DNA from: a virus
DNA: 55,970 nt
Strand: one strand, 5' to 3'
Virus record (IMG/VR): IMGVR_UViG_3300045988_090085
Location: 1-55,970 of that record
Below, piece by piece: positions 25,345 to 37,812 of the stretch (the stretch's first letter is position 1; each line of letters opens with the position of its first letter). The translations under genes were made by a program, and so were the position numbers. The notes under the pieces were generated by a model. That model was given only the letters and a program-made list of their open reading frames with translations. It ran no database searches and was not told the origin of the DNA.

Positions 25345-27108
25345 TCAGGTATTGTCTTCGGTGCCGGGATCAGAAGATGCTTTAGCAGTTTCGATGGCAA
25401 TAGCAGAATAGGGCTTGATGAGCGCACCGGAGATTCTGGTCTCGATCAGATACTTCTGCTGGTTGTAGTCGATGTCGAAGTCATCAAACATGTTGATAGC
25501 TCCGCCCTTATCAGCACCAACGTTGTAGTCGGAGAGGTTTACGATAATGCCGAGCAGATCGCCGCCGTTCTTACCCTTGGCGCCTTCCATAACAGGTACA
25601 GTAACGATAGCGGAAACTCTGAGCTTCTTAGCGAGCTGAGCCTCATCGTTGTAGATGGTACGGCCGGTGGTGTCCTCGATGAGGAGCATAGAAGTAAGCA
25701 TGTCTTCAGTAGTGTAAAGAATAGGAGCGCCGCTGCCCTTATAGTCCTTACGAGATCTGATAGCGGCAACAATAAATGCCTTAGCCTTATCGATATCAGA
25801 AGCGCCGTCTGCAGTAGTAACAGTAACCTTGATGGTATACAGATCATCATCGTTGAAGATAGGTCTTACGTGAGACTCCTGAATCTTGTCTTCAGCAGAA
25901 GAGAGTCTTCCGTCACCGATGAGAATAGCTCTTGCAAGTTCCTCGTTGAGCATCATACGCATCTCGGACTTAACCCAAGATACAACGTCGAATGAGGTGA
26001 TGTCAATGAGATCATCTCTGTCGAACTTCTGCTTCTTGTAGACAGTCTGAGGGTCAGTGGTTCTCTTGAGGAGTGTGAATACCTGCTCCTTCTTGAGCTT
26101 ACCCTTGATATAACCCTTTGCGCGAGCTTCGTCAGCGGTAATGTTAGCGAAGATAGACTTGATGCGGCTGAAGGGAGTGTGATGTACGCCATTGAGAACG
26201 CCGTCAACCCAGCTGGTATCACGCTTGATGAAACCGGGGATAGTGTCGATGGTCTTGTAGTCGGGGAACAGATAATCAATGTTAGTGATAGAGTGAGCGA
26301 TGCAGGACTCCTTCATGGAACCGTAACGCTTCATATCACTGATTGCGGCAGCCATGTCTTCATGAGAAATGGTATCGCCGGTAGTGAGTGTGCTCTGGTC
26401 AAATACATTATAAGGCATTTCATTTTCCTCCTTAATAGAATGAATTATATCTTCAGGGTCGCTGAGGTCGAGATCAAGACCGTCGAGCACATCTCCTGAA
26501 TCGTATGAATGTTCAATGTCTGTAGATCCTTCATCGAGAGCATGAGCAACGAGTGCCGTCACTACATCGCGCTGCTTGTCAGTAAGGGTCACAAGGACGT
26601 CGGCAACGGTCTCTTCCTTTGAATCAGGAGTGCCGTCTGCGGAATGGCAAATGATGGATTCACCGAAATAGATAACACCTTCTTCGCTCAGATCTTCACC
26701 ATGAGAAACGACGGTATCGATTGTTGCGGCAGGATTAGCCCCAACTGCTACAAGGCTGACTTCACAGATATTTCCATGAGTTACGTCAGCGCCGAACTGG
26801 TGAATATCATTTGCGAAAATGGAAAGGGATTTGAGGTCACCGTGCATAACCGCCTTGTGAGCATCAATGCCCTTTGTGGTGTCATTGAACTTACAGTAAG
26901 CATACACGCCCTCTGGACGATTCTCAAGCAGTGCATGCCCAAGAATATTGGATACATCCTTGTGCTGATGGGACCAAACGAGAGGCACGATCTTACCGTT
27001 GCAATGCGCGAATGCATCCTTCTTGATGGTTCTGCCATCGGAGCATCTCACATCATTCTTGGTTGCCCATCCACAAAAGTCATAGTCATTACTGCTGACT
27101 GTTGCCAT
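25345..27108 (-). CDS. Prohead protease (HK97 S78 family) fused to major capsid protein (HK97 fold)
   Basis: N-terminus ..VWSHQH..GHALLENRPEGVYAY..HGDLKSLSIFA..ICEVSLVAVGANPAATI; C-terminus ..DRDDLIDITSFDVVSW..EELARAILIGDGR; ATG after GGAGG. Confidence 0.8.
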   Translation of the reverse strand: MATVSSNDYDFCGWATKNDVRCSDGRTIKKDAFAHCNGKIVPLVWSHQHKDVSNILGHALLENRPEGVYAYCKFNDTTKGIDAHKAVMHGDLKSLSIFANDIHQFGADVTHGNICEVSLVAVGANPAATIDTVVSHGEDLSEEGVIYFGESIICHSADGTPDSKEETVADVLVTLTDKQRDVVTALVAHALDEGSTDIEHSYDSGDVLDGLDLDLSDPEDIIHSIKEENEMPYNVFDQSTLTTGDTISHEDMAAAISDMKRYGSMKESCIAHSITNIDYLFPDYKTIDTIPGFIKRDTSWVDGVLNGVHHTPFSRIKSIFANITADEARAKGYIKGKLKKEQVFTLLKRTTDPQTVYKKQKFDRDDLIDITSFDVVSWVKSEMRMMLNEELARAILIGDGRLSSAEDKIQESHVRPIFNDDDLYTIKVTVTTADGASDIDKAKAFIVAAIRSRKDYKGSGAPILYTTEDMLTSMLLIEDTTGRTIYNDEAQLAKKLRVSAIVTVPVMEGAKGKNGGDLLGIIVNLSDYNVGADKGGAINMFDDFDIDYNQQKYLIETRISGALIKPYSAIAIETAKASSDPGTEDNT

Positions 27109-28345
27109 TTTGAATTTCCTCCTTCTTATTATTTGTAGTGTCATTGGAAGGAGTTTGTGCAACTTCTTCGGCAGACTTATTGAGGTTCTTGTTTCTAAGT
27201 TCATCCGCATTCGGGTCGCTGGAGGGTTTCATACCTGCAATCTGGCGAACTTCATTAGATGTAAGAATCTCGTTTCTTGTAAACTTATCCGCAATATCAG
27301 CAAGATTACTGATAGGAACAAGCTTAAAGGGATCTCTGAAGTATACAATGTCTTGACGCTGACTACGCGCCGTCTTGGATAAGAACTTAACACGCATAGC
27401 ATCAACTATAGCAGCTACAATTGGTTCGATTGTACGGCTGTTGTAGTTTAACATTGTACTTTCATCGGCGGAACCATTGAGAACTTCGGTTGTGATACCT
27501 AACTGGGCATAAAACTGTGAAGTGAGGTATTCAATCTGGGCCTGGAGATTGTTCTCAAGGGGACGGTTAAGTTGAGTAATCTTCTCAGTGCCATCCGTGT
27601 ACGCAATACCATACTTTGAACCTGAAAGTTGGACTTCAATTTCTCTACGTCTTTCCTCAGCCTGCTTCTTTCTGGCTTCGGATTTGATAACATAAGGTAA
27701 CTGAATGATAAGGTCTAACTTACCAGCACTATTTTGAGCGTCAATAGCGTCAAGCATAGATATTTTTCGCATAAGACGCTGCATAGTGCTGTTTGGTTCA
27801 TTTATTATGGCATACAGGGGATTTGGAACGATCGCGACACAACGTTTCGGAAGCATTATCTCATGATGCTGACCATCGTTTTCGTTGTAAAGATCTATCT
27901 TAACATACTGAGGTCGCCATTCAACTATCTTACCAACTCGCATACTAAGCACGTCGTAAGAATCTGTGAACGTTATATCATTTGTAGCTTTGACCGGAAC
28001 AATTGCAATCGAACCGTTTGTAAACATACTCAGCACGCAGTCTTGAACGAAAGCCCTAGATGTCTGATCGATATTAGCCTCTTGTGTCAAGCAATAATTC
28101 AGGCCATCATTAATGGTTTCTGAATATCTGTCATTTTCGTCAAGACGTACGTGCTGTATCACAACGGACGCAACATCCAGTGCGATACGATTATAGACAG
28201 CCATAATGGTTGTCGTTTCTGACCCCTGATAGTATCTTGCATAGTTGGGTGAGTAGTACGACGCGGGGCCGTAGTCGTACGGGGTAGGATCTCGACCCAT
28301 AAAAACGTTCCAGGCGTGTTTAGCCCGGGATATTAATGAAGCCAT
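27089..28345 (-). CDS. Portal protein
   Basis: 418 aa between the TerL-side genes and protease-capsid; assigned by size and position. Confidence 0.7.
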   Translation of the reverse strand: MASLISRAKHAWNVFMGRDPTPYDYGPASYYSPNYARYYQGSETTTIMAVYNRIALDVASVVIQHVRLDENDRYSETINDGLNYCLTQEANIDQTSRAFVQDCVLSMFTNGSIAIVPVKATNDITFTDSYDVLSMRVGKIVEWRPQYVKIDLYNENDGQHHEIMLPKRCVAIVPNPLYAIINEPNSTMQRLMRKISMLDAIDAQNSAGKLDLIIQLPYVIKSEARKKQAEERRREIEVQLSGSKYGIAYTDGTEKITQLNRPLENNLQAQIEYLTSQFYAQLGITTEVLNGSADESTMLNYNSRTIEPIVAAIVDAMRVKFLSKTARSQRQDIVYFRDPFKLVPISNLADIADKFTRNEILTSNEVRQIAGMKPSSDPNADELRNKNLNKSAEEVAQTPSNDTTNNKKEEIQNGNSQQ

Positions 28346-28360
28346 AAACAGCTCTCCTGA

Positions 28361-29905
28361 TTATCGACGCATTGCGTTTTGTATATTACTGATGATATTA
28401 TTGAATGTATCCATATTCATATCGATCTCTCCCCCGGTGTTTATCTTAGATATTTCACCGGCGCCATCCGAAATACGTTCAAGCTTATTACGTAAGGCAG
28501 TCTTCTGCATGTCGCTTATATTTGCAGCGTCGATATCGGAATCGATTTTATTATACGCGGTTTCCCACATTTTATATTTACCCTCAGCTAACGTTACATT
28601 CTTTTTTGTGTTTCGAGCTGCTGATATCATGCTTTCGTAGCTTGTCCGCAGGTTACGTGCCAAGTTTATCAGATCCTGTGTAGATTTATAGAACTGATCC
28701 AATTTGTTATTGAGGCTGTTGTACGCATTGTTATTTGCTATAGGTTTCGGAACAGCCGCATGCTCGATAAAATCGTCAGTAGGCATGTCGAAATATGACT
28801 GCTTGATTCTCTGATTGGGATTAGGGTAAGATACGACTTCATAGGGAATAAATATGGATCTTGCTTTCATCAATCTCATTGAATTTCGTTTTGAGGTAGT
28901 TGGGTATGCAGAAACATCAATAGCTTTAACGTCGTCCAGGAGTTTTTTCTGGGCATCGACATTGACCTTCATTTGTGCATGGTAAGAATCAGCTTCACTC
29001 TTGGCGTCTGAAGCTTTTTTTCTAGCTTCCCATATCCACTTCTCGTAATTTTGAGTAGCTTTTAAAGGGTGGCCGTACTTCGATGCTGACGATGCTCGGA
29101 TACCCTCATAACTTCCCGCATTATTCATGTAATTATAATACGACTTCATAGACCGATTATAATCATTCAAGATAGTTTTGTACTCGCTCTTGAGTTTCTT
29201 CATTTTTTCTGCATAAGCATTTATCAGACGAATATCTGCATCATACTGCGGACTTCCCGTGGGAACCAAGCTGGCATGCGAAAGAGTGTTATTAGCATAC
29301 GCTCTACTTGAACCGGATCCCTGGTAGTCAAGCCAATCGTTCATTGACATGCCTCTTTTTTCGGCATGTCGAACGCTATTCACATACGGTCCGTCATATT
29401 CACGGGTATGTTTAGAACGCTGCTGCCGGTATTTATCATATTTAACTTGTGCAATGGAGAGCCTTCTTTTAGCATCAGAAAGACCGTTTTTTGCGTATTC
29501 AAGTTGTTTATTGAGATCCTCAAGATGCAATTTTTGGTTCTTTTCTCGGCGAGTCGATTCCTGAAATGCCTTTAATGGAGAAGCGACTGCAGCTTTCTTT
29601 CGTTCTGCTTCGATATCAGCTGCTTGTTTTTCGACTTCTTTTATACGTTTCTCGATTTCTTCAACTTGCTTTGTATATCGTTCGATATCCATTTCGGCAC
29701 TTCTTTTTTCACGCCAGGTCTTCTCAACAGCATAATCATCGGCATCGTCCTGTTCGATTCGTGCACGAACTTTCTTTTCGTCGAGTTCTTCTTTGTCTTT
29801 TTTACCAAAAAGTTTCGACGGATCCCATTTCATGCCCTTTACGCCATAGTGAGCAATATACGCTTTACTTGAACCCGATCCCTGATAGTCAAGCCAATCG
29901 TTCAT
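28361..29905 (-). CDS. Coiled-coil head-module protein (514 aa) with duplicated N-terminal tag MNDWLDYQGSGSS
   Basis: ORF track frame trimmed to ATG after GAGGTGG; a 47-nt repeat (29860..29906 vs 29299..29345) places a second in-frame ATG behind a GAGG. Confidence 0.65.
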   Translation of the reverse strand: MNDWLDYQGSGSSKAYIAHYGVKGMKWDPSKLFGKKDKEELDEKKVRARIEQDDADDYAVEKTWREKRSAEMDIERYTKQVEEIEKRIKEVEKQAADIEAERKKAAVASPLKAFQESTRREKNQKLHLEDLNKQLEYAKNGLSDAKRRLSIAQVKYDKYRQQRSKHTREYDGPYVNSVRHAEKRGMSMNDWLDYQGSGSSRAYANNTLSHASLVPTGSPQYDADIRLINAYAEKMKKLKSEYKTILNDYNRSMKSYYNYMNNAGSYEGIRASSASKYGHPLKATQNYEKWIWEARKKASDAKSEADSYHAQMKVNVDAQKKLLDDVKAIDVSAYPTTSKRNSMRLMKARSIFIPYEVVSYPNPNQRIKQSYFDMPTDDFIEHAAVPKPIANNNAYNSLNNKLDQFYKSTQDLINLARNLRTSYESMISAARNTKKNVTLAEGKYKMWETAYNKIDSDIDAANISDMQKTALRNKLERISDGAGEISKINTGGEIDMNMDTFNNIISNIQNAMRR

Positions 29906-29916
29906 TTTACCACCTC

Positions 29917-31659
29917 TCAAAAATTATCTCGATTGTGTTTGTATGCCACAAAAGCGTCCATCATTGCCGAGACAGAATCAATCTTCTGTTCGCGATGAGA
30001 CTTAAGCAGCTTTCGGTTTCCGTTAGTATCCTCTAGTGTGATGCAGTTTCCCATAGCGAACTGCATAAGGGCTTCGTCAAAGAGAAGCATACGCTTTTCA
30101 CTAAGATGCTTTAACTCACCAAGAGGAACTGACTCTGTACGTGCTCCCTGGATAACTTTCTCAACACCGAATTCGGAGTTCTCAGATACATAAAGATCTA
30201 CGAACTCTTTAGCATTATATGGGTCGTAACCAAAGCAACGTACATCATATTCGCACATTTGTATATGTGTATCGAGGTCCTGATATACCTGTGTCATGTC
30301 AAGTATAGAACCTTCCATGATTATAAGACTACCTTCATCCATGAATTCCTGGTATTTACTCCTCATTGCCAACGGCAACTTAGCAAGAGTAAATGAGGTT
30401 ATGTAAGCTCGAGTCTTTATTCCGAAAGCACCGTTATCAAGCGGAAACAGGAATGTAAACGCACAGAAGTCATCGCCAAGTGACATATCACCACCAAGCG
30501 AACACGCCATTCCGTTATAATACTGCTTACGATGGGGTATAGTTTCCTCGTATGAAAAGTAATATGTGTAACCCTCCATCGGTAAACCGAACCTCTTAGC
30601 AAGAATATCATTACGGGTAGCGGGAGCTTTCTCGGCACGTTCTACGTCGAGTTGATAAGCTTCATAACTTACGGTCTTTCCTATATTAGGCTGGGCCTTT
30701 ATCCACATCTCCGGATTACCAACTTCATCAATAGAATCGAGTTGATACCACCAGATAGATACATGAGGATTGATGTACTCGCCTTTAAGGATATCCATCA
30801 ATTCCATTTTGATTGTATCGCCCGGGCCATTACGAACCGTACCTTCTGAACTTACTGCAATGATAAGATAGTCATCATTCTTGGATGCACCCTGTTCAAG
30901 CGCACCTATTACATCCTCTCGGATATCGCCTGAAAGCCATTCGTCGACCGTATTGATACGGCTGTTAAGTCCCTGCAACTTGTCAATAGTCATGGGACGA
31001 ATCTCGACAATGGATCCAGTGATGAAATTCTCGATACCCTTCTTTGTAGCTACAAGTTTAGGTCGACTAGCCTTTGAACCAGTAGTGTTATTGATAGAGC
31101 CTTCTGTCAAGAAAGTATACAACGGTCCTCGGGATCTAGCCATGGCAGTTTTCATAGGCATGGTGACCTCTTCTGCCTGCTTCATAGTCGGAGCGGTGTG
31201 TACACCACGTGTGGTTGTAACATCGCAGCTTAAGAAGTAACTCTGTATGTAGCTCTCATACTGCGATTTAGCTGCGCCTCGTCCTACAATAAGGTATTGT
31301 TTGTTGATGAGTCTTTTCTTGACTCTTCGACGGACATAGTGACCGGTGTTGTTTTTACCGGGTTTGTATACGTGCTTTTCAACGAAGTAATACCAACCAA
31401 ACACCTGCTCTCCCCAGAGCTTAAACGTATCCAGAAGCTTAAGATCAGAACCATCTGTAAGAGTTAACTCATTCTCACAAAACTGTATCCATCCTTCAAC
31501 CTTTCCCGGATCGTAATACACTCCCGGATTTCGAATCAGGTCATCTATGCGATTCATCTCCATCGAAATCTTCTGATTAACAGGTATCTCGCCGCGCATT
31601 ACTGCGTCACGAAATTCACCGTAATACTTAGGAACGGCAGTGTTTGATAACCTACTCAC
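29917..31659 (-). CDS. terL: Terminase large subunit
   Basis: 580 aa; P-loop-like LIVGRGAAKSQ, nuclease-type C-terminal half, position; GTG start overlaps the upstream stop (GTGA). Confidence 0.85.
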   Translation of the reverse strand: MSRLSNTAVPKYYGEFRDAVMRGEIPVNQKISMEMNRIDDLIRNPGVYYDPGKVEGWIQFCENELTLTDGSDLKLLDTFKLWGEQVFGWYYFVEKHVYKPGKNNTGHYVRRRVKKRLINKQYLIVGRGAAKSQYESYIQSYFLSCDVTTTRGVHTAPTMKQAEEVTMPMKTAMARSRGPLYTFLTEGSINNTTGSKASRPKLVATKKGIENFITGSIVEIRPMTIDKLQGLNSRINTVDEWLSGDIREDVIGALEQGASKNDDYLIIAVSSEGTVRNGPGDTIKMELMDILKGEYINPHVSIWWYQLDSIDEVGNPEMWIKAQPNIGKTVSYEAYQLDVERAEKAPATRNDILAKRFGLPMEGYTYYFSYEETIPHRKQYYNGMACSLGGDMSLGDDFCAFTFLFPLDNGAFGIKTRAYITSFTLAKLPLAMRSKYQEFMDEGSLIIMEGSILDMTQVYQDLDTHIQMCEYDVRCFGYDPYNAKEFVDLYVSENSEFGVEKVIQGARTESVPLGELKHLSEKRMLLFDEALMQFAMGNCITLEDTNGNRKLLKSHREQKIDSVSAMMDAFVAYKHNRDNF

Positions 31660-32120
31660 TTCTTATCACTCTGTCCCTTCTTAGGATTTACAATATCCTG
31701 TCCCACGGCCTTGTTTATAGCGGTGCCGAGGGCATATGTTACCGCTTGGGTTCCAATATTTTCGAGTGACTTATCGAGTACATTCTTACCAATCTTACTG
31801 ATCCAATCAACTGCACGCTTCTTCTTAGACGGTGCTGCTGCCATAGACTTTTCGAGATCGGCAAGAGACTGCTCGAGCTTGAGACGAGATATGCGGTTCT
31901 GTATCTCCTCGTCAGTCATCTCAGAAACCTTTTTCTTCTTGGGAGTTTCATCCTCAGCTTTTGTTTTGCTGGTTGAAATCTTCTTGCGTCCGCCATGGAA
32001 ACCAAGACTCTGAAATGGACGAAGACCAGAGCCCCATTTAAATCGTCCCGATCTACGAGGTTTGCCATAGTGGGCAATGAAATCCTCATAAGGCATATTC
32101 GTTATAGACGTGACATCCAC
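31656..32120 (-). CDS. Basic protein (154 aa) carrying the N-terminal HYGKPRRSGRFKWGSG motif
   Basis: GTG start 5 nt after GGAGGAG; motif shared with 34207..36975. Confidence 0.65.
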   Translation of the reverse strand: MDVTSITNMPYEDFIAHYGKPRRSGRFKWGSGLRPFQSLGFHGGRKKISTSKTKAEDETPKKKKVSEMTDEEIQNRISRLKLEQSLADLEKSMAAAPSKKKRAVDWISKIGKNVLDKSLENIGTQAVTYALGTAINKAVGQDIVNPKKGQSDKK

Positions 32121-32479
32121 TATGACTCCTCCTTTTGATAGAGTTTATCAGAGATAGCATTGATGCGCCATTCGAGTTCAGCGATTGTCTGATCGAGGGC
32201 ATCAACCGCGCTACTATTTGTAGGCGGATCAAACTGTTTACGAACTTTGGCGGTGACATAAGACTTCACCAGGTTACGAGTCTTCTCGTCAGGTATAAGT
32301 TCAGTCCACGTTTCATTTATACCAGTGACAAACATTGTGTTTGGCATGCTATCGCCGATCTGATCCAAGATAACAAGCACACTGTTTATGTACATAATGA
32401 GATCTGGATCATAGTAATCATCTTCTACGTTTCCAGTCAGGAACTTTCGCATTGACTGGAGGATGCTGTCAGTATTCAT
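32120..32479 (-). CDS. Hypothetical protein (119 aa), possibly head-tail connector-like
   Basis: ORF track; weak recalled resemblance to gp6-like connector proteins, position atypical. Confidence 0.5.
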   Translation of the reverse strand: MNTDSILQSMRKFLTGNVEDDYYDPDLIMYINSVLVILDQIGDSMPNTMFVTGINETWTELIPDEKTRNLVKSYVTAKVRKQFDPPTNSSAVDALDQTIAELEWRINAISDKLYQKEES

Positions 32480-32721
32480 CGACGGCCTCCTATCTTGTGA
32501 TCTCGTATCTCTACGTGATCGCGTTCAGTATAACCTATTACGCCATAATCGGCTTTGATGAAGTAGTACCTGTCCGACGATTTTGAGTAGTCTACCGTGA
32601 CCATAGATCCTTCTGAGATTATACCAACAGTATAAGACGTGTCAATCGGTTTCACTCGAATAATCGTGTTAAAACAGTTGGTAACGAAACCTGTAGCTAC
32701 TTTTTGATCAGTCTCAGACAA
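32476..32721 (-). CDS. Small SH3-like beta protein (81 aa)
   Basis: TTG start 7 nt after GGAGG preferred over the upstream ATG at 32754. Confidence 0.5.
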   Translation of the reverse strand: MSETDQKVATGFVTNCFNTIIRVKPIDTSYTVGIISEGSMVTVDYSKSSDRYYFIKADYGVIGYTERDHVEIRDHKIGGRR

Positions 32722-32725
32722 GCTT

Positions 32726-33157
32726 TTACCTCCTCTTCCAGGGGCAAGTATCATAAGGTTTGCGTTCCACTGGTCGGATATTGAGTTGATCCAGATTCCC
32801 GTAGTGTATGGCCTTATGTGTTGTTACCCTAACTGATATGAGATACTCTGGATCCATAAGGAACCTTGTACCGTTACGAATATCATCCATAGTAATCGGA
32901 TTCATATGATGGATTATGATCATCTCGCCAGGAGTAAACTCATGACCTTCAACGCCTAAGTCGCAGCCCATATCACGGGTTATAACTTGCGGTCTGACGA
33001 TTGACCATTCTCTTGAATGATAAAACATCTGATTAAAGATTCTGTCTACGCCGAAAGTATCGCTTGCTACGACCCCTGGAAGTTTCAAATACTCGAATCG
33101 CTCCTCGAATGTAGCAAGCTGGGATAGTTCAGTATAACTCCTGATCATCTTCATCAT
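32726..33157 (-). CDS. HNH endonuclease (terminase-associated type)
   Basis: ..IIIHHMNPITMDDI..LISVRVTTHKAIHYG = H-N-H pattern; start uncertain (33148-33184). Confidence 0.65.
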   Translation of the reverse strand: MMKMIRSYTELSQLATFEERFEYLKLPGVVASDTFGVDRIFNQMFYHSREWSIVRPQVITRDMGCDLGVEGHEFTPGEMIIIHHMNPITMDDIRNGTRFLMDPEYLISVRVTTHKAIHYGNLDQLNIRPVERKPYDTCPWKRR

Positions 33158-33473
33158 CGTTTCCACTATATCTTCGCATAGCATCGATTACCTTTTGGAA
33201 CAGTTCTTCATTCCTTTTCTCGGACTTTATGGCCTCGGTCTTTGCCCTAAGAAGTTTGTTCTCTTCTTCAAGCTTTTCTCTTTCGAGCCGATCTCGAGAC
33301 CCGGCCATTTTTAAGTAGTGGGTAATGACCTGTGACGATGCGGTGCCATCCCTTAGCTGCTGTTCGGCACGGTCTACTGCTAACGCAATGAGCTGTGCTT
33401 CACGAGCTTCAGGCGTATATGCTGGGGTCGTCTCGTAATTTACATCACTACCGTTAACTTTACCTCGTCTCAA
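33129..33473 (-). CDS. Putative terminase small subunit
   Basis: 114 aa; TTG start 8 nt after AAGGAGG; first gene after a 476-bp non-coding region, upstream of HNH and TerL; function by position only. Confidence 0.4.
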   Translation of the reverse strand: MRRGKVNGSDVNYETTPAYTPEAREAQLIALAVDRAEQQLRDGTASSQVITHYLKMAGSRDRLEREKLEEENKLLRAKTEAIKSEKRNEELFQKVIDAMRRYSGNDDEDDQELY

Positions 33474-33490
33474 AGTAGTTTCCTCCTTAA

Positions 33491-33569
33491 GCCCTAGTAG
33501 GAGATTGCACGTACTCGACACCTATTGAAAGGAGAAAGTTAAGTATCGCCTGCAACCTCTTACTAGGGC
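33491..33569 (-). promoter_or_regulatory. Long imperfect hairpin (19-bp outer stem + 6-bp inner stem) abutting the RBS of the first late gene
   Basis: Minus GCCCUAGUAAGAGGUUGCA..UGCAAUCUCCUACUAGGGC (1 mismatch, 1 G-U), inner CGAUAC/GUGUCG; 3' arm ends 1 nt before UUAAGGAGG. Confidence 0.6.
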
Positions 33570-33590
33570 TTAAAAGTGATTTTAAGCAAA

Positions 33591-33658
33591 CCTCCCCCGG
33601 GGAATTCTCGAGGAGGCGCGCGATAAGAGAGGGGGTGTATTTTGAAAGACCCCTCCCC
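33591..33658. promoter_or_regulatory. GC-rich palindrome cluster (candidate cos/pac or regulatory site)
   Basis: CCTCC-CCCCGGGG-AATT-CTCGAG-GAGG, GCGCGC, then GAGGGGGT-N12-ACCCCTCC, inside otherwise AT-rich DNA. Confidence 0.4.
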
Positions 33659-33949
33659 ATGTTCATATGTTTGCAATGTCCTTTGCTTTCTTCTTTCATT
33701 TCTGTTCGTTGAACAATAACAAAAGCTTAAACAATTTGTTAGACAAAGCAAACACATTAAACATGAGAAACGTTTTGCTGTTTACTGACCAAACAACAAA
33801 GCGCTTTAAAGTTCTTATCCTTGTAAATAGAATTCAAAGATTATCGATCAGCTTCTTTAATCATTCATGTATCGAATCCAATTGTGTGGGTAGGCATAGA
33901 TTCCATAAACTATATCTGCAAGTCCAGTCAATTAATCTAAGAATTATAT

Positions 33950-34201
33950 TCAAGTATTATTTGGAGCGTTACGACTAACGACTTTGAAGATGTCTAAAGG
34001 ATCTTCAATAACAACTTGATTGCAAGCTCTTTGAATTTCCTTATTGTATTCTTCAGGAGTCATTGTGTCATCTGTGAACGCAACTCTTGCGAGACGTTCA
34101 CACGTCTTATAACCATGAGCGATATCATAGTTCCACCACTGATCAAACTTATCAAATGGTGAATAAGGATTATCTTTCGTGGTTAATGCGAATTCTTTCA
34201 T
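33950..34201 (-). CDS. Hypothetical protein (83 aa)
   Basis: ORF track frame, ATG 8 nt after AGGAG; last gene of the nuclease/RNAP operon. Confidence 0.7.
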   Translation of the reverse strand: MKEFALTTKDNPYSPFDKFDQWWNYDIAHGYKTCERLARVAFTDDTMTPEEYNKEIQRACNQVVIEDPLDIFKVVSRNAPNNT

Positions 34202-34206
34202 TGCGT

Positions 34207-36975
34207 TCACTCCTTTCCTTTAACATAAGCAGAAACAGTTGATGAAGATACCCCAAGTGCTTCTGCAATTTCAGCAACTGTATAACCAGAGGTATTCATT
34301 GCTTTAAGTTTATTGATCTTTGCATCAGAGAGAGTTGTTGCAGCTCTTGGTGTAGCGCGCTTTCTTAAATCCTCAGAATCAACATACTTAAATATTTTAC
34401 CGAGTTTGCTGTCCGAAATTGCGCCTGCTTGAATCGCTTCCCATTCACGATCTGAGATCTTGATGTTGGTACGCTTAGCTCCCACCTGGATACGGGCCTT
34501 AGTAAGCTGTCTCTGACTTTCTTTCTTGATTTCACCCTTTGTCATATAGGGATTCGATGCCTTCTTAGCATCCACTGCCATGCGGGCTATGATCTGAGCT
34601 TGCCTTTCACGAGGAGCATTACGGGCTGCAGTCTTATACTGAGCCTCAAGGTTAGCTACCTCAGATGCATACTTCTTATTTGCTTCCGGACTATAGGTAA
34701 GTCGAGGCGTGTACACAGAAGCCTTGCGTGCTTCGTTTGCCAATGTCTTAAGATCATTAGCATAGTTTGCATACATATCTTCGACAACAGTTCCTGAAGA
34801 TAAAGTACGAGCATCGCGTGTTTCAGCCATCTTGGTGGAAACCTGCTGACGATGGACGGTCTCACCCTTTTTATTCACGTAAGTAGCAGGGTCTGTTGCC
34901 TGTATTTCAGCACCTTCCGGAAGTGAAGGATCATACCAAGGCTTGTCTTTCTGATTGATATGAACAGAGCCTTTTCGTTTATCTACACGTTTGTCACTCT
35001 TTGCTCGAGATATAAGTGTAGACGCACCTTCATGATATTTACCATCATCTTCATCAATGTGTCCCTGATACTTAGCTTTAAGTGCTGCTATTCTATTATC
35101 AGCTTCGGACTGCTTATAGTTCAGTCCATGCTTCTCGGCATCGATTACAACCATCGAATGTCGAACTGCACAAGCAAGTTCGTCATCGTTAGCGCCCTTC
35201 AATGTCATGTCAGTGATGAGGTTTGAAACAACACCCATTTCCTTCTGGGTCTGACCTTTGGTCATTCGTTTCATTCCTTCGATTGCAGGATATGCCATCT
35301 TAGGATCGAAGCCCTTGAGTCCAGGAAGTTCCTCTCTTGATGTTATCTTAACACCTGTATTCTTTCCATTACCAGCTGTAGGGATAACCATTACAGTATC
35401 ACCATCGAAGTCCGCTCCCGAAAGTCGATCAGCTACATCTTTTGAGATACCAACAGCATCGAGTGCATTGCCGTATGTATTTTTGCCTTGCTTATTCTTA
35501 TTATTGACTGTGAGTATAGGTATCTCAAACGTACCACCATGTGGAAATCGTATAAGCGCTACCTTTTCGCCGTCCTGATAAGTAGGCGCATAAACCTCAT
35601 CGTTCTTTATATCGGTTAGGGGTAAGATTACTTTGTAGTTCTGCCTAGGAAGTGCTGCTGCGTCAAGATGAACTGCAGTTGAATCACAGTCCGAGGCAAA
35701 GCTCGCGAGGAGCTCTCTTTTAACAACAGGATTATCCAGAGAAAGTATTTCATCAAGATCTTCCTGTCGATTCTTTATAGACAAATCAAGCTGCTTTGAA
35801 ATAAGCTGCTTATTCTGTTTGGATAAGAACTGTGCAGGAAGATGATCAGACCATTCTTCCCAATCGCCTTCCTCTCGGGTCTTATTAATAAGACTCTGCT
35901 GCTCTTTTCCATTGTCATCAGTGTACCAAGACTGACCACCACGCTCCTTGAGGAGAGCGCCGAACGGATTTTCGGGATCATCCTTGATTTTCTTGAGAAC
36001 GTCCATCTTAGGCACGTCTTTGGTTTTGTTTGTGTTGAAACGGACATCGACTCCATCAGGAAGATCGTCAGCGTAGACTGCCATTCCCTTCAGGTATCTA
36101 TTTCCGTCAACCAGAATTCGAACCTGCGCATAATGTGAATTGCCGAGGTCCAAATCTGCTACACCTCTACGGAGCTCGATTACGCCATCCTTGTTGACGC
36201 CACCGTCTTCGGCGTAGTTGATCATCAAACGCTTAGAATCCATAGATTTAGGATAAGCAAATGCCTTTTTGAACGAATCACCCTGATCATAGGAAATATA
36301 GTTCTCAACCGAATGAATTTCGTCGAAATTGAATATTTCCTTGTGTTCTGTACCAGGAGGACAGAGCGCTTTAACAGTAGTGAACTTACCAGGATTAGTA
36401 ACCTGCTCCATTCGACCATTATAAGTCGGATAACCTTCGAGTTCAAGAATATAGAGCGCAGTTTTCATCATTTCTGGCGAAACACCTAGCTGCTCAGCAA
36501 CACCTGAACCGACATCCAGTTTACCATCTTCGGCGACTCTCTTTTTGAGGAAGTCAGCTGTCTTCTGGGCCTGGTTCATGCGAGCTTCAGATGCTTCATT
36601 CAAGAGCGATCGTACTGTTGACTCAGCAATACCGCCCATACGTCTTCCGATCTCAGTAGCTCCATAACCCTTTTCAGAAAGTCTTCTTGCAGTCTCAACC
36701 TGAATAGCTCTTTCTTCGTTCTTGGCGAGAGATCGCTGAGTTCTGAACTGCGAAGTTGTAAGACCCATAGATTTAGCAACCTCGGTATCTGTCATACCAG
36801 TAGCCTTTAGTTCCTTTATACGACTGAGAAAATCACCTGCGTGCTGATAGGGATTCTCGCCAGATCCGTAAGGCCACCGACCAGATCGTCTTGGCATTCC
36901 GTAATGCTCGATAAGCCAAGGCTCTCTGTCAAGTTCCTCTTCAAAGTAGGCAAGATCTTCCATGCCCCAGATCAT
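34207..36975 (-). CDS. Putative single-subunit double-psi beta-barrel RNA polymerase (YonO / RdRP-like) with N- and C-terminal HTH modules
   Basis: aa 472-533 VALIRFPHGGTFEIPILTV..LSGADFDGDTVMVIP parallels beta-prime ..NRAPTLH..NADFDGD.. and the RdRP DbDGD loop (DFDGD = 35398..35412); HTH-like aa ~55-125 and ~893-922. Confidence 0.6.
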   Translation of the reverse strand: MIWGMEDLAYFEEELDREPWLIEHYGMPRRSGRWPYGSGENPYQHAGDFLSRIKELKATGMTDTEVAKSMGLTTSQFRTQRSLAKNEERAIQVETARRLSEKGYGATEIGRRMGGIAESTVRSLLNEASEARMNQAQKTADFLKKRVAEDGKLDVGSGVAEQLGVSPEMMKTALYILELEGYPTYNGRMEQVTNPGKFTTVKALCPPGTEHKEIFNFDEIHSVENYISYDQGDSFKKAFAYPKSMDSKRLMINYAEDGGVNKDGVIELRRGVADLDLGNSHYAQVRILVDGNRYLKGMAVYADDLPDGVDVRFNTNKTKDVPKMDVLKKIKDDPENPFGALLKERGGQSWYTDDNGKEQQSLINKTREEGDWEEWSDHLPAQFLSKQNKQLISKQLDLSIKNRQEDLDEILSLDNPVVKRELLASFASDCDSTAVHLDAAALPRQNYKVILPLTDIKNDEVYAPTYQDGEKVALIRFPHGGTFEIPILTVNNKNKQGKNTYGNALDAVGISKDVADRLSGADFDGDTVMVIPTAGNGKNTGVKITSREELPGLKGFDPKMAYPAIEGMKRMTKGQTQKEMGVVSNLITDMTLKGANDDELACAVRHSMVVIDAEKHGLNYKQSEADNRIAALKAKYQGHIDEDDGKYHEGASTLISRAKSDKRVDKRKGSVHINQKDKPWYDPSLPEGAEIQATDPATYVNKKGETVHRQQVSTKMAETRDARTLSSGTVVEDMYANYANDLKTLANEARKASVYTPRLTYSPEANKKYASEVANLEAQYKTAARNAPRERQAQIIARMAVDAKKASNPYMTKGEIKKESQRQLTKARIQVGAKRTNIKISDREWEAIQAGAISDSKLGKIFKYVDSEDLRKRATPRAATTLSDAKINKLKAMNTSGYTVAEIAEALGVSSSTVSAYVKGKE

Positions 36976-37529
36976 ATTACTCCTCCTTCCTGTTTAGTTA
37001 TGATATCAGAGAATCGTATTGCCTTATCCATAATATATTTTATGCGCTCTGGCTCAGGATTATGAATCACAACCTGATTGTTCTGATATATGCGTAATTC
37101 CATCTCAAGATCAGCCGGATTCTTCTTATACTCCAGACAGAACAAAGCTGCATATATTTCAAGCTGCTCCATGTGTGCTGGAACTACCCCAGTCTTGAGA
37201 TCATGTATTCTCAGCATATTTTTTCGGAAACTTATGGCATCAGCCGTTCCAAAACAATAAGGAGAATAATATAATATTCTCTCAGGTGTCATCTTGTAGC
37301 CAATTGCGTCATTGACATAAAGATTGAGAGTCGCGTTGGTTTTCTGCAGCTTTACGCCAAGCTTAATACACTGTGCTGCAAGAGCGTGAAGTTCAGTTCC
37401 CTGAGCAGCTGCAAGGAAATTATTGCGAGTTTCCATGAGCTTGTCTTCGTCATAGTTTACCCAAGAATATTTACTCGCCGAGAGAAAGGCATGTTTACCT
37501 TCAAGCTTGGAATGATCGTTCCATATCAT
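36972..37529 (-). CDS. PD-(D/E)XK nuclease (RecB/Cas4-like core, no Cys cluster)
   Basis: GTADAISF..LRIHDLKTG..HMEQLEIYAALF = D..DxK..QxxxY; ATG after AAGGAGG. Confidence 0.6.
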   Translation of the reverse strand: MIWNDHSKLEGKHAFLSASKYSWVNYDEDKLMETRNNFLAAAQGTELHALAAQCIKLGVKLQKTNATLNLYVNDAIGYKMTPERILYYSPYCFGTADAISFRKNMLRIHDLKTGVVPAHMEQLEIYAALFCLEYKKNPADLEMELRIYQNNQVVIHNPEPERIKYIMDKAIRFSDIITKQEGGVI

Positions 37530-37812
37530 TGAGTACGGCCTCCTTATTCTCAGGGTAAATAAATGATGCATAGGACATGTTGTTCATCGTATCAACATAA
37601 TAATCCTGATTGGGTTGATGAGACGCTTCGGCATCTCTCTTACATTCAAGAGCTGCCCAGTGTCCTTGATGTAAAACAAGTAAATCTGGGATACCCTGAA
37701 TGTGATTTGGATCAGTCTTTAAAACCAGGCATCCTTCGAACCGATGCTTGATCTCTTTGACTAAACCAGATTGGAAGTCTCGTTCCAATTTGTTAGGGGA
37801 TCGTCCTTTCAT
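37501..37812 (-). CDS. VRR-NUC domain nuclease
   Basis: ERDFQSGLVKEI..GIPDLLVL..ALECKR pattern; ATG after AAAGGAG. Confidence 0.65.
   Translation of the reverse strand: MKGRSPNKLERDFQSGLVKEIKHRFEGCLVLKTDPNHIQGIPDLLVLHQGHWAALECKRDAEASHQPNQDYYVDTMNNMSYASFIYPENKEAVLNDMERSFQA

Follow-up and report, generated by a model that had tools for sequence, protein, structure and literature searches.

The window analysed here, a ~56-kb stretch of phage DNA (55,970 nt), encodes three proteins that carry a related short peptide near the N-terminus, and one of the three is an RNAP-like protein. Our working hypothesis, which we regard as reasonably probable, is that this tag is a partner-binding peptide that recruits cargo, the polymerase included, into the capsid for ejection. 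If true, transcription of phage genes by this polymerase could proceed independently of the host enzyme, and the host could be the target of other cargo. The three proteins (P1, P2, and P3) and their tags are:

34207..36975, minus strand: P1, a 922-aa RNAP-like protein of the 1706/YonO-like family (phrog_4291, E = 0, residues 22-921)
36841..36918, minus strand: tag on P1, RNAP form, WLIEHYGMPRRSGRWPYGSGENPYQH, residues 20-45
31656..32120, minus strand: P2, a 154-aa protein encoded directly upstream of terL (phrog_7021, E = 3e-11)
32007..32084, minus strand: tag on P2, RNAP form, DFIAHYGKPRRSGRFKWGSGLRPFQS, residues 13-38
28361..29905, minus strand: P3, a 514-aa protein encoded between terL and portal
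29822..29863, minus strand: tag on P3, DUF7211 form, AYIAHYGVKGMKWD (Pfam PF23847)

In all three proteins the block lies within ~45 residues of the N-terminus and in the open reading frames that the original prediction had named. The His codons of the HYG core start at 36906 (P1, H24), 32072 (P2, H17), and 29851 (P3, H19 with the ATG at 29905 as codon 1), which accounts for the upper coordinates first assigned to the blocks. The P1 and P2 blocks are identical at 15 of 26 aligned residues, one more than originally counted, and because 13 of these 15 residues differ in their codons, the block is conserved at the protein level. The relatedness of the three blocks was confirmed by BLASTP of P1(1-151) against P2 (E = 6e-10, identities 27/78), by the match of P3 to Pfam DUF7211 (PF23847; E = 1.2e-6 for the whole protein and 7e-8 for the N-terminal 60 aa), and by the profile comparison described below. 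The accompanying claim that the proteins are unrelated outside the block is roughly correct, but the similarity between P1 and P2 continues weakly into an 'MTDxE' helix. HMMs of both forms of the tag, with training sets that included the three window copies, detected no further copy when the window was translated in all six frames.

The two forms differ in length. P3 carries the DUF7211 form (..L.HYGVKGMKWGVRRYQ..., with the Pfam core HYGVKGMKW), while P1 and P2 carry the longer RNAP form (HYGxPRRSGRxxxGSGxxPxQ), which in RNAPs typically reads ..L.HYGxPRRSGRYPWGSGxxPYQ.... Neither P2 (E = 0.45) nor P1 (no match) reached the Pfam threshold for DUF7211. When a profile of RNAP N-termini was compared with the DUF7211 profile using hhalign, the two matched with 93.6% probability and E = 2e-7 over 'D.L.HYG(M/V)'; the global alignment paired HYGVKG----MKWGV--RRYQ with HYGMPRRSGRYPWGSG..PYQ, giving the P1/P2 form one 4-residue and one 2-residue insertion relative to DUF7211. 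Moreover, P2 shares a homologous C-terminal body with proteins that occupy the same position and bear the DUF7211 form. P2 homologues comprise 635 representatives; of the 150 best P2-family representatives, the DUF7211 form is present in 93 and the RNAP form in at least 19. Judged from the profile comparison and the homologous bodies, both forms are one family, and they are interchangeable, as P2-family bodies carry either. The motif could have turned out to be a widespread domain whose function is established and of another kind; instead, it corresponds to a Pfam DUF for which Pfam gives no function and on which our literature search found no paper, and the search likewise found no paper describing the tag as a cargo signal.

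In AlphaFold (AF2) models the tag is a low-confidence coil in both P1 (pLDDT < 50 for residues 1-33) and P2, in which the helix at residues 70-94 reaches a pLDDT of ~96. The block is thus predicted to be a short, intrinsically unstructured peptide, and a low-confidence coil despite conservation, as seen here, is typical of peptides that acquire their fold on binding a partner. Both the motif and the sequence flanking it have a strongly basic composition (KGMKWGVRRYQNKDG..GKKR). In P2 the tag is followed by a K/S-rich linker, the conserved helix (MTDEEIQNRISRLKLEQ), a NIGTQ..TY..G.A.NK segment, and a C-terminal VNPKKGQ.DK.

P1 carries the tag at its N-terminus, HTH domains in its N- and C-terminal parts, and GADFDGD at 520-526, in which D522, F523, D524, G525, and D526 are invariant among homologues. 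The 1706 family of YonO-like proteins, to which P1, with its invariant DFDGD, belongs, comprises two-barrel RNAP relatives with a DxDGD loop (Iyer et al. 2003; Ruprich-Robert and Thuriaux 2010, PMC2919709; Koert et al., bioRxiv 10.1101/842583). The papers on the YonO family mention HTH domains and mention neither an N-terminal tag nor a link to the head module (PMC2919709; bioRxiv 10.1101/842583). In tblastn against 50,697 phage records, P1 homologues (38-50% identity) were present in 251 records, and the RNAP form was found at the RNAP N-terminus in 250 of these; metagenomic homologues number at least 8000. Tag residues H24, G26, S31, G32, R33, G37, S38, G39, P42, and Q44 were invariant in 22 homologues. 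Because the tag is near-invariant while the N-terminal 150 residues of RNAP homologues as a whole are mostly ~55-70% identical, selection on the RNAP tag is, by sequence comparison, strong. Searching with P2 also led back to the polymerase: in tblastn its tag matched the N-termini of RNAP genes in Gordonia and Rhodococcus phages.

The DUF7211 consensus was found at 435 places in 224 phage records with a genus profile almost that of the RNAP, so that the search for the motif confined this form to the same lineage. This lineage comprises 1706-like phages, Oengus-like phages, and a large actinophage supercluster, and the hosts are all Gram-positive, either Bacillota or Actinomycetota. Wherever a metagenomic, IMG/VR, or GTDB locus among those examined extended far enough upstream of terL, it contained the RNAP (L011-L014, L016, L017, L026-L028, L032, L035, and L039). 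Because tag and RNAP both mark the same lineage, their co-occurrence may reflect shared ancestry instead of a link in function.

In the window, tagged genes flank terL on either side. The head-module genes are:

25345..27210, minus strand: fusion of prohead protease (S78) and HK97-type MCP (Peptidase_S78 + Phage_capsid; phrog_3270, E = 1.6e-211)
27089..28345, minus strand: portal (Pfam Phage_portal, E = 4e-16; phrog_12)
29917..31659, minus strand: terminase large subunit, terL (Pfam TerL_nuclease, E = 1.6e-29; phrog_9, E = 4e-100)
32120..32479, minus strand: Phage_connect_2 connector (Pfam PF24829, E = 1.2e-22)

Pfam and PHROG searches recognised no separate scaffold gene in the window. In all related loci the connector gene lies ahead of a tagged gene, and tagged ORFs, of which there are 1 to 8 per genome, cluster at the connector gene, terL, and portal. 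Their number and identity vary widely among close relatives; among related loci terL is 57-75% and portal 39-62% identical. The tag is common to at least 13 PHROG families. With few exceptions it lies inside the first ~50 residues of the ORF, followed by K/S/G-rich linkers. Its fusion partners in relatives are GNAT plus Gln_amidase, LigT, and DUF5662 plus Ntox50. Most tagged genes lie in the head module, but a few occur outside it (in L011-L013, in L017, where it encodes the Ntox50 protein, and in L030). Because the tag is internal in LigT-tag-body fusions and because 1706 orf7 and Mudcat gp7 have second copies, it is not a strict N-terminal signal.

That the polymerase is delivered by the virion, as originally proposed, is supported by homology. 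In the record of Lactococcus phage 1706 (GenBank EU081845) the depositors labelled orf75 (the RNAP homologue), orf7, which bears two tags, and orf6, the homologue of the connector, as 'structural protein'. The ReqiPoco6 record repeats this 1706 label for its own RNAP homologue, and the tag-bearing family phrog_35934 is annotated 'virion structural protein'. These labels suggest that P1 is a virion protein, which may then be ejected. Similarly, lineage-wide conservation, clustering, fusions, and disorder all argue for a packaging or ejection tag, and we infer that the tag may bind a head component, have a causal role in packaging, and lead to ejection and early transcription. Specifically, we suggest that the tag would dock on a conserved multi-copy head-assembly component during procapsid assembly; candidate binding partners are the portal and the protease-MCP fusion, the latter by its inner face or protease part. 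Tag carriers would thereby be trapped inside the head, here the YonO-like RNAP, P2 with its helical C-terminus, and P3, and in relatives acetyltransferases, LigT-type phosphoesterases, Ntox50 and glutamine-deamidase toxin domains, and Ala/Gly-rich membrane-like proteins. At infection, the cargo would leave the head together with the DNA.

Several known systems resemble this arrangement in part. The capsid targeting sequence (CTS) of T4 internal proteins IPI-III, on which Mullaney and Black reportedly worked, is said to be a short start peptide on unrelated injected head-internal proteins. CTS carriers include anti-host enzymes, and the CTS binds the scaffold core and is removed by gp21. The present tag is likewise short and stands at the beginning of several proteins that are otherwise unrelated, here predicted cargo, and the same 25-residue Pfam model, DUF7211 (PF23847), marks tagged proteins in all related phages examined; it differs from the CTS in having no sequence similarity to it and in that it can be internal or duplicated, and the present phages, in contrast to T4, are siphoviruses that infect Gram-positive hosts, have their protease fused to the MCP, and show no recognised scaffold. 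Encapsulin cargo-loading peptides, said to have been described by Sutter et al. in 2008, reportedly dock on the shell interior. By analogy these peptides are the closest mechanistic match to the proposed role of the tag, being short, conserved, and disordered, carried by diverse enzymes, and encoded next to an HK97-fold shell gene; unlike the tag, they are usually C-terminal and of other sequence, and they load a non-viral shell that ejects nothing. The MuF (SPP1 gp7-like) polymorphic toxins of temperate phages, reportedly described by Jamet et al. in 2017, share with the tagged proteins a constant head-associated N-terminal module, variable toxin/effector C-termini, and genes adjoining portal, but their module is a folded domain of ~100-300 aa rather than a ~25-residue peptide, and Pfam detected no MuF domain here. 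Finally, N4 vRNAP gp50, crAss-like gp66, and phiKZ vRNAP are carried in the particle and start transcription on delivery. The crAss-like and phiKZ enzymes are two-barrel too, but all three belong to podo- or myoviruses of Gram-negative hosts and are giant or multisubunit, whereas P1 is a 922-aa single chain from a siphovirus lineage, with a putative virion presence suggested by the annotation of a homologue.

Several considerations speak against a packaged, tag-recruited polymerase. FP_oengus encodes an integrase and related prophages exist, and it would be unusual for a temperate siphovirus to carry an RNAP in its virion. The long tail would have to let a ~105-kDa protein through, and the basic residues that follow the motif are also compatible with binding to nucleic acid. 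YonO of the Bacillus prophage SPbeta transcribes SPbeta late genes, and to our knowledge this characterised distant relative is not known as packaged.

We therefore considered other roles for the tag. It might be an assembly or anchoring motif for portal, connector, or capsid, with carriers that are scaffold-like, head-completion, or internal structural proteins that are not injected, and with an RNAP that is only incidentally virion-associated or late-acting like YonO in SPbeta. We consider this unlikely, although it agrees with the lack of a recognised separate scaffold gene, the fusion of the protease to MCP, the 'structural protein' label of 1706 orf7, the exact place of head-assembly genes that tagged genes occupy, and the position between terL and portal of P3 and several relatives, which are long, charged, and coiled-coil-like. 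Toxin and effector fusions (Ntox50, Gln_amidase, GNAT, LigT) make little sense on purely structural proteins, the tagged set varies unlike core structural genes, and a head-locked polymerase would be without access to template. Still less probable in our view is a tag that acts post-entry or intracellularly. Bound to nucleic acid or to a host component (cell envelope, RNAP, ribosome), such a tag would bring diverse phage proteins to one cellular site or to phage DNA. The basic motif and flank, the exclusively Gram-positive hosts, the location of some tagged genes in early or replication regions, and the HTH domains that adjoin the tag in the RNAP would suit this role; yet most tagged genes lie between terL and portal, among genes whose expression is normally late, the 1706 tagged proteins are labelled virion proteins, and the preservation of the motif across hosts as distant as Lactococcus, Faecalibacterium, and Streptomyces argues for a partner that is encoded by the phage and conserved, as terL and portal are, rather than a host partner.

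The block could also be a propeptide that is recognised and cut off by the S78 prohead protease and shared through head maturation. Internal proteins of T4 and phiKZ have N-terminal propeptides that the head protease removes, and here the fusion to MCP places the protease in every subunit. We rate this as improbable, as cleavage at internal or duplicated tags would cut carriers to pieces; moreover, it is compatible with recruitment of cargo, the T4 targeting sequence also being a cleaved propeptide. That the blocks share no function and are chance similarities or recombination relics between gene starts agrees with the short core and the DUF7211 scores of P1 and P2 below threshold, but is effectively refuted by near-invariance of the tag over thousands of homologues, the pairwise (6e-10) and profile-profile (2e-7) E-values, the differing codons, and the tblastn link from P2 to RNAP N-termini of distant actinophages, and we give it next to no credence.

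P3, which is charged and rich in K, E, R, Q, A, and L, had no PHROG match and no tblastn match among phages. Translation of P3 probably begins at the ATG at 29905, which has GAGGTGG ahead of it. Two further features lie within its gene:

29297..29345, minus strand: in-frame 49-nt repeat of the P3 gene start, 94% identical to 29858..29906
28751..28777, minus strand: candidate degenerate tag remnant DDFIEHAAV, P3 residues 377-385

The repeat recreates MNDWLDYQGSGSSRAY at residue 188, a copy of the first 16 residues without the HYG core, and the internal ATG at the repeat has AGAGG 7 nt upstream. As a weak lead, DDFIEHAAV fits the DUF7211 pre-motif consensus D-D-F-L-x-H and may be a further, degenerate copy.

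The original prediction held that an N-terminal HYG motif shared by the 922-aa RNAP-like protein (P1), the 154-aa protein adjoining terL (P2), and the 514-aa protein in the terL-portal interval (P3) might be a capsid-targeting tag and the RNAP virion-delivered. The three related blocks themselves were borne out: in a six-frame scan, I(A/E)HYG occurred only three times, each near the N-terminus of P1, P2, or P3; the upper coordinates originally assigned to the blocks fall exactly on the His codons (36906, 32072, and 29851, respectively); and HMMs of both forms of the motif found no further copy in the window. The similarity of the P1 and P2 blocks also stands, with 15 of 26 residues identical instead of the 14 first counted. 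Thirteen of these 15 residues are encoded by different codons, and in BLASTP the N-terminal 151 residues of P1 matched P2 with E = 6e-10. P3 scored as Pfam DUF7211 (PF23847), a 25-position model with a curated gathering threshold of 27 bits and no assigned function in Pfam (28.3 bits for the whole protein; 32.1 bits for the N-terminal 60 aa, residues 18-32). On the P1 and P2 blocks this model stayed below threshold (P2, 10.4 bits, E = 0.45; P1, no match). A profile of RNAP N-termini, compared with the DUF7211 profile in hhalign, matched with 93.6% probability and E = 2e-7, and the global alignment placed HYGVKG----MKWGV--RRYQ opposite HYGMPRRSGRYPWGSG..PYQ. Because of this match, and because both forms are swapped on homologous P2-family bodies, we relate the P1 and P2 blocks to DUF7211; judged by sequence, the three blocks are one motif, here called the tag, in two forms, the DUF7211 form (P3) and a longer RNAP form (P1 and P2). 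Chance similarity is ruled out by the BLASTP and hhalign E-values together with the codon divergence. Resemblances of RYQNKDGTLT to YD/Rhs repeat hairpins and of KWG to WXG or GW modules were considered and dropped as unsupported.

P2 represents a family of small proteins (635 representative clusters) laid out as tag, K/S-rich linker, a conserved helix (MSDxELxxxIxRLxLEKxY), NIGTQ..TY..G.AVNK, and a C-terminal IVNPKKGQKDK, and its C-terminal body is homologous to same-position proteins of other phages that carry the DUF7211 form. Among the best 150 P2-family representatives, 93 carry the DUF7211 form and at least 19 the RNAP form, and intermediates such as HIGxxxSGRYPWGSG also occur; the two forms are interchangeable. 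Because the RNAP form is nearly restricted to the RNAP among isolated phages, P2 of the window is an unusual carrier. The body of P3 is an orphan, unmatched in PHROG and, by tblastn, among 50,697 phage records, and Pfam recognised no enzyme domain in the bodies of P2 and P3. We note that the P3 gene contains a 49-nt in-frame direct repeat (29297..29345 and 29858..29906, minus strand; 94% identical, 561 nt apart), through which the opening 16 codons and their ATG recur at codon 188, with AGAGG 7 nt upstream of the internal ATG. The repeat could provide an internal start giving a tag-less 327-aa isoform or be a relic of tandem duplication, as in the two-tag proteins of Lactococcus phage 1706 and the actinophage Mudcat.

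The window is apparently a whole ~56-kb siphovirus genome with nearly all genes on the minus strand. In transcription order, the genes around terL are:

36972..37571, minus strand, Cas4/DUF2800-like nuclease, first in transcription order and directly upstream of P1
34207..36975, minus strand, P1, the 922-aa RNAP-like protein
between P1 and P2, minus strand, five small genes, the last being the Phage_connect_2 connector (32120..32479; Pfam E = 1e-22)
31656..32120, minus strand, P2, the 154-aa protein
29917..31659, minus strand, TerL, downstream of P2
28361..29905, minus strand, P3, the 514-aa protein, after TerL and before the portal
27089..28345, minus strand, portal, downstream of P3
25345..27210, minus strand, prohead-protease (S78)/HK97-type major-capsid (MCP) fusion in a single ORF

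The protease-MCP ORF as listed shares ~120 nt with the end of the portal gene, and the real start is therefore probably an internal ATG (MATVSS...). The connector gene lies in an odd position, upstream of terL and not behind the capsid gene, and a tagged gene always comes after it; this placement is kept in most related loci covering the region upstream of terL and also in 1706 (orf6, 'structural protein'). Likewise, a block of three genes, the DUF2800/Cas4-like nuclease, the RNAP, and a small ~85-aa gene immediately downstream (33950..34210), is kept across gut Clostridia phages, Lactococcus 1706, and actinophages. Megablast of the 10-kb region against phages gave no match.

Of 251 phage records with the RNAP, 250 have the RNAP form at its N-terminus, one per genome, and this form is nearly invariant in metagenomic RNAP homologues. 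The DUF7211 consensus was found at 435 places in 224 phage records with a genus profile nearly equal to that of the RNAP, and therefore the two mark the same lineage among isolated phages; their co-occurrence may reflect shared ancestry alone. Tagged proteins in isolated relatives include:

Lactococcus phage 1706 (GenBank EU081845) orf7, two tag copies, directly upstream of terL
Faecalibacterium phage FP_oengus gp69, tagged, between terL and portal
actinophage Mudcat gp7 (two copies) and gp9, tagged, around terL/portal
actinophage Secretariat gp12, gp14, and gp15, tagged, around terL/portal
phage Rainydai gp6 and gp8, tagged, around terL/portal

We also examined seven metagenomic, 16 IMG/VR, and eight GTDB loci. 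In most of them terL, portal, and protease-MCP are homologous to those of the window, with one to eight tagged ORFs packed among the connector gene, terL, and portal, and a tagged RNAP is present in every locus with enough sequence upstream. The GTDB matches are Clostridia prophages or contigs, one complete genome included, and two matches from other phyla are tiny MAG contigs. Complete or near-complete genomes of Clostridiales bacterium CCNA10 (AP018533.1; locus L039) and Muriventricola aceti (locus L035) carry prophages of the lineage with a tagged RNAP and four DUF7211 genes. Because of these prophages, the lineage is at least partly temperate, as the FP_oengus integrase also suggests. Tagged genes are not confined to the head module, the few exceptions being a 62-aa DUF7211 ORF that sits with replication genes (L011-L013, 10001..10189), a DUF5662-DUF7211-Ntox50 protein in an early region (L017, 3412..4338), and a 228-aa tagged protein adjoining tail-like genes (L030, 10010..10696).

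The bodies joined to the tag are diverse. In nearly all tagged ORFs the tag begins no further than ~50 residues from the N-terminus; it is followed by low-complexity, basic or Ser/Gly-rich linkers, and heads at least 13 PHROG families, all of 'unknown function' except phrog_35934 ('virion structural protein'). Domain architectures, taken from the loci, include 2xDUF7211-GNAT-Gln_amidase (acetyltransferase plus papain-fold glutamine deamidase) in Secretariat gp15, a tag joined to a LigT/2H phosphoesterase in Secretariat gp12 and Rainydai gp6, DUF5662-DUF7211-Ntox50 in L017, and DUF7211-GNAT in L016; many further tagged bodies have no Pfam match, several of them with Ala/Gly-rich hydrophobic stretches. 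The tag is not strictly terminal, being internal in the LigT-tag-body proteins Secretariat gp12 (residue 351) and Rainydai gp6, and second, internal copies occur in 1706 orf7 and Mudcat gp7. In AF2 models the tag is a low-confidence coil in P1 (residues 1-33, pLDDT <50; rest of the tag, ~57 mean) and in P2 (tag region, mean 53-64), where one helix reaches a pLDDT of ~96. Thus, the tag is predicted to be disordered on its own, and a near-invariant unstructured peptide would be as expected of a ligand that folds on its partner.

P1 matched phrog_4291 (annotated RNA-dependent RNA polymerase) with E = 0 and belongs to the '1706 family' of YonO-like proteins. Homologues 38-50% identical to P1 occur in FP_oengus, in Lactococcus 1706-like phages, and in ~230 actinophages with Arthrobacter, Gordonia, Streptomyces, Rhodococcus, Microbacterium, and Curtobacterium hosts. 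Metagenomes contain at least 8000 homologues. GADFDGD (residues 520-526) corresponds to the putative catalytic DxDGD metal-binding loop, and D522 to D526 do not vary among 22 homologues. The match to Pfam RdRP (PF05183) is weak, scoring 16 bits (E = 0.0049) where the cutoff is 23.8. The AF2 model, built with 22 homologues, is mediocre (pLDDT 64.6, and <50 over residues 439-549, the catalytic region); Foldseek of this model against the PDB returned nothing at E < 0.3, only wHTH-like noise, and sequence and profile searches of PDB chains with P1 gave no match. The 1706 family has been placed among two-barrel RNA polymerases by HHpred and PSI-BLAST (PMC2919709; bioRxiv 10.1101/842583), with an HHpred match of 95.7% (Koert et al., bioRxiv 10.1101/842583). 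The two-barrel identity of P1, taken from published profile work, is therefore putative. Earlier publications also describe this RNAP family and show that it is conserved in actinophages and Bacillota phages alike. Helix-turn-helix domains lie at each end of P1 (residues ~46-150 and 880-922), the C-terminal one with a strong HTH_23/Sigma70_r4 match, and because of these domains most database records call the protein just 'helix-turn-helix DNA-binding protein' or 'transcriptional regulator'.

For virion presence we relied on GenBank labels of the 1706 homologues. The depositors called orf6 (connector homologue), orf7 (twice tagged), and orf75 (RNAP homologue) 'structural protein', a label also given to a few proteins scattered across non-structural regions, and the ReqiPoco6 record describes its RNAP homologue as 'similar to 1706_gp75 structural protein'. 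In the 1706 paper by Garneau et al. from 2008, structural proteins were reportedly identified by SDS-PAGE and LC-MS/MS. No usable virion proteomics on 1706-like or Arthrobacter phages turned up in literature searches.

The best-supported reading is recruitment into the head via the tag and exit with the DNA: the tag would bind a conserved head component and bring its carriers into the assembling head, and the tagged proteins, polymerase included, would leave the head with the DNA. The candidate partners are the portal and the protease-MCP fusion, both conserved, multi-copy, and present in every tagged genome. In its widest form, which we put just short of an even chance, the proposal is that the DUF7211 and RNAP forms serve as cargo-loading peptide in a very large lineage of siphoviruses with Gram-positive hosts (gut Clostridia, lactococci, and Actinomycetota). 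The peptide would load into the capsid a fast-changing set of effector enzymes and small membrane-active proteins, along with a two-barrel RNAP of one chain, for delivery through a long non-contractile tail. Internal or duplicated tags and the few tagged genes outside the head module count against a cargo tag, and the existence of some temperate relatives counts against it and against a virion RNAP. For YonO itself no packaging is known, which also counts against virion delivery of the RNAP. In a rival reading the tag would serve only structure or scaffolding; the window has no recognised separate scaffold gene. Alternatively, the tag might bind the host or DNA once entry has taken place, or be a protease-recognition propeptide.

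In its proposed way of working, the tag would resemble the capsid-targeting sequence of T4 and the cargo-loading peptides of encapsulins, and it is, like MuF polymorphic toxins, associated with variable effector fusions. What we found is a short peptide common to proteins that are otherwise unrelated and whose genes accompany the head genes; a constant module with variable toxin/effector C-termini is seen in relatives and not in the window, and P1, P2, and P3 gave no match to Phage_Mu_F (MuF/SPP1 gp7). By sequence and by the families' defining tests, the tag is not a member of the T4 capsid-targeting, encapsulin, or MuF families.

We found no text in the literature that mentions the motif, that it occurs on the RNAP, or that it is linked to the terL-portal gene array. 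If true, the proposal would describe the first virion RNAP system in siphoviruses and would point to host-independent early transcription in them, carried out by an enzyme described as enigmatic in its role since 2003-2010. It would also supply a portable ~25-residue tag with which foreign proteins could be packaged into phage heads, a practical tool for phage protein delivery. A Pfam DUF that occurs in thousands of proteins would gain a function, as would at least 13 PHROG families whose function is unknown. The proposal would further account for the variable gene array between terL and portal in this lineage, whose isolated members number over 200 (SEA-PHAGES actinophages, Lactococcus 1706-like, and Faecalibacterium Oengus-like) and which also includes abundant human-gut prophages. 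Because cultivable, genetically tractable relatives exist, the idea is directly testable.

Several tagged cargo proteins (in L029, L021, L032, L014, and others) share an unannotated ~250-aa C-terminal domain with the motif GY(D/N)A(V/I/L)(I/L)D.ND...KP.I(L/V) and no Pfam match, often after a hydrophobic Ala/Gly-rich stretch. Locus L014 (10001..10758) also contains a 50-aa DUF7211 ORF with a 4-nt overlap with a 202-aa ORF that has a faint Gln_amidase match; a frameshift or an assembly error may have split a tagged deamidase into this pair. At the same position in the L035 and L039 prophages, the tagged ORF is ~190 aa (stop-to-stop), not 50.
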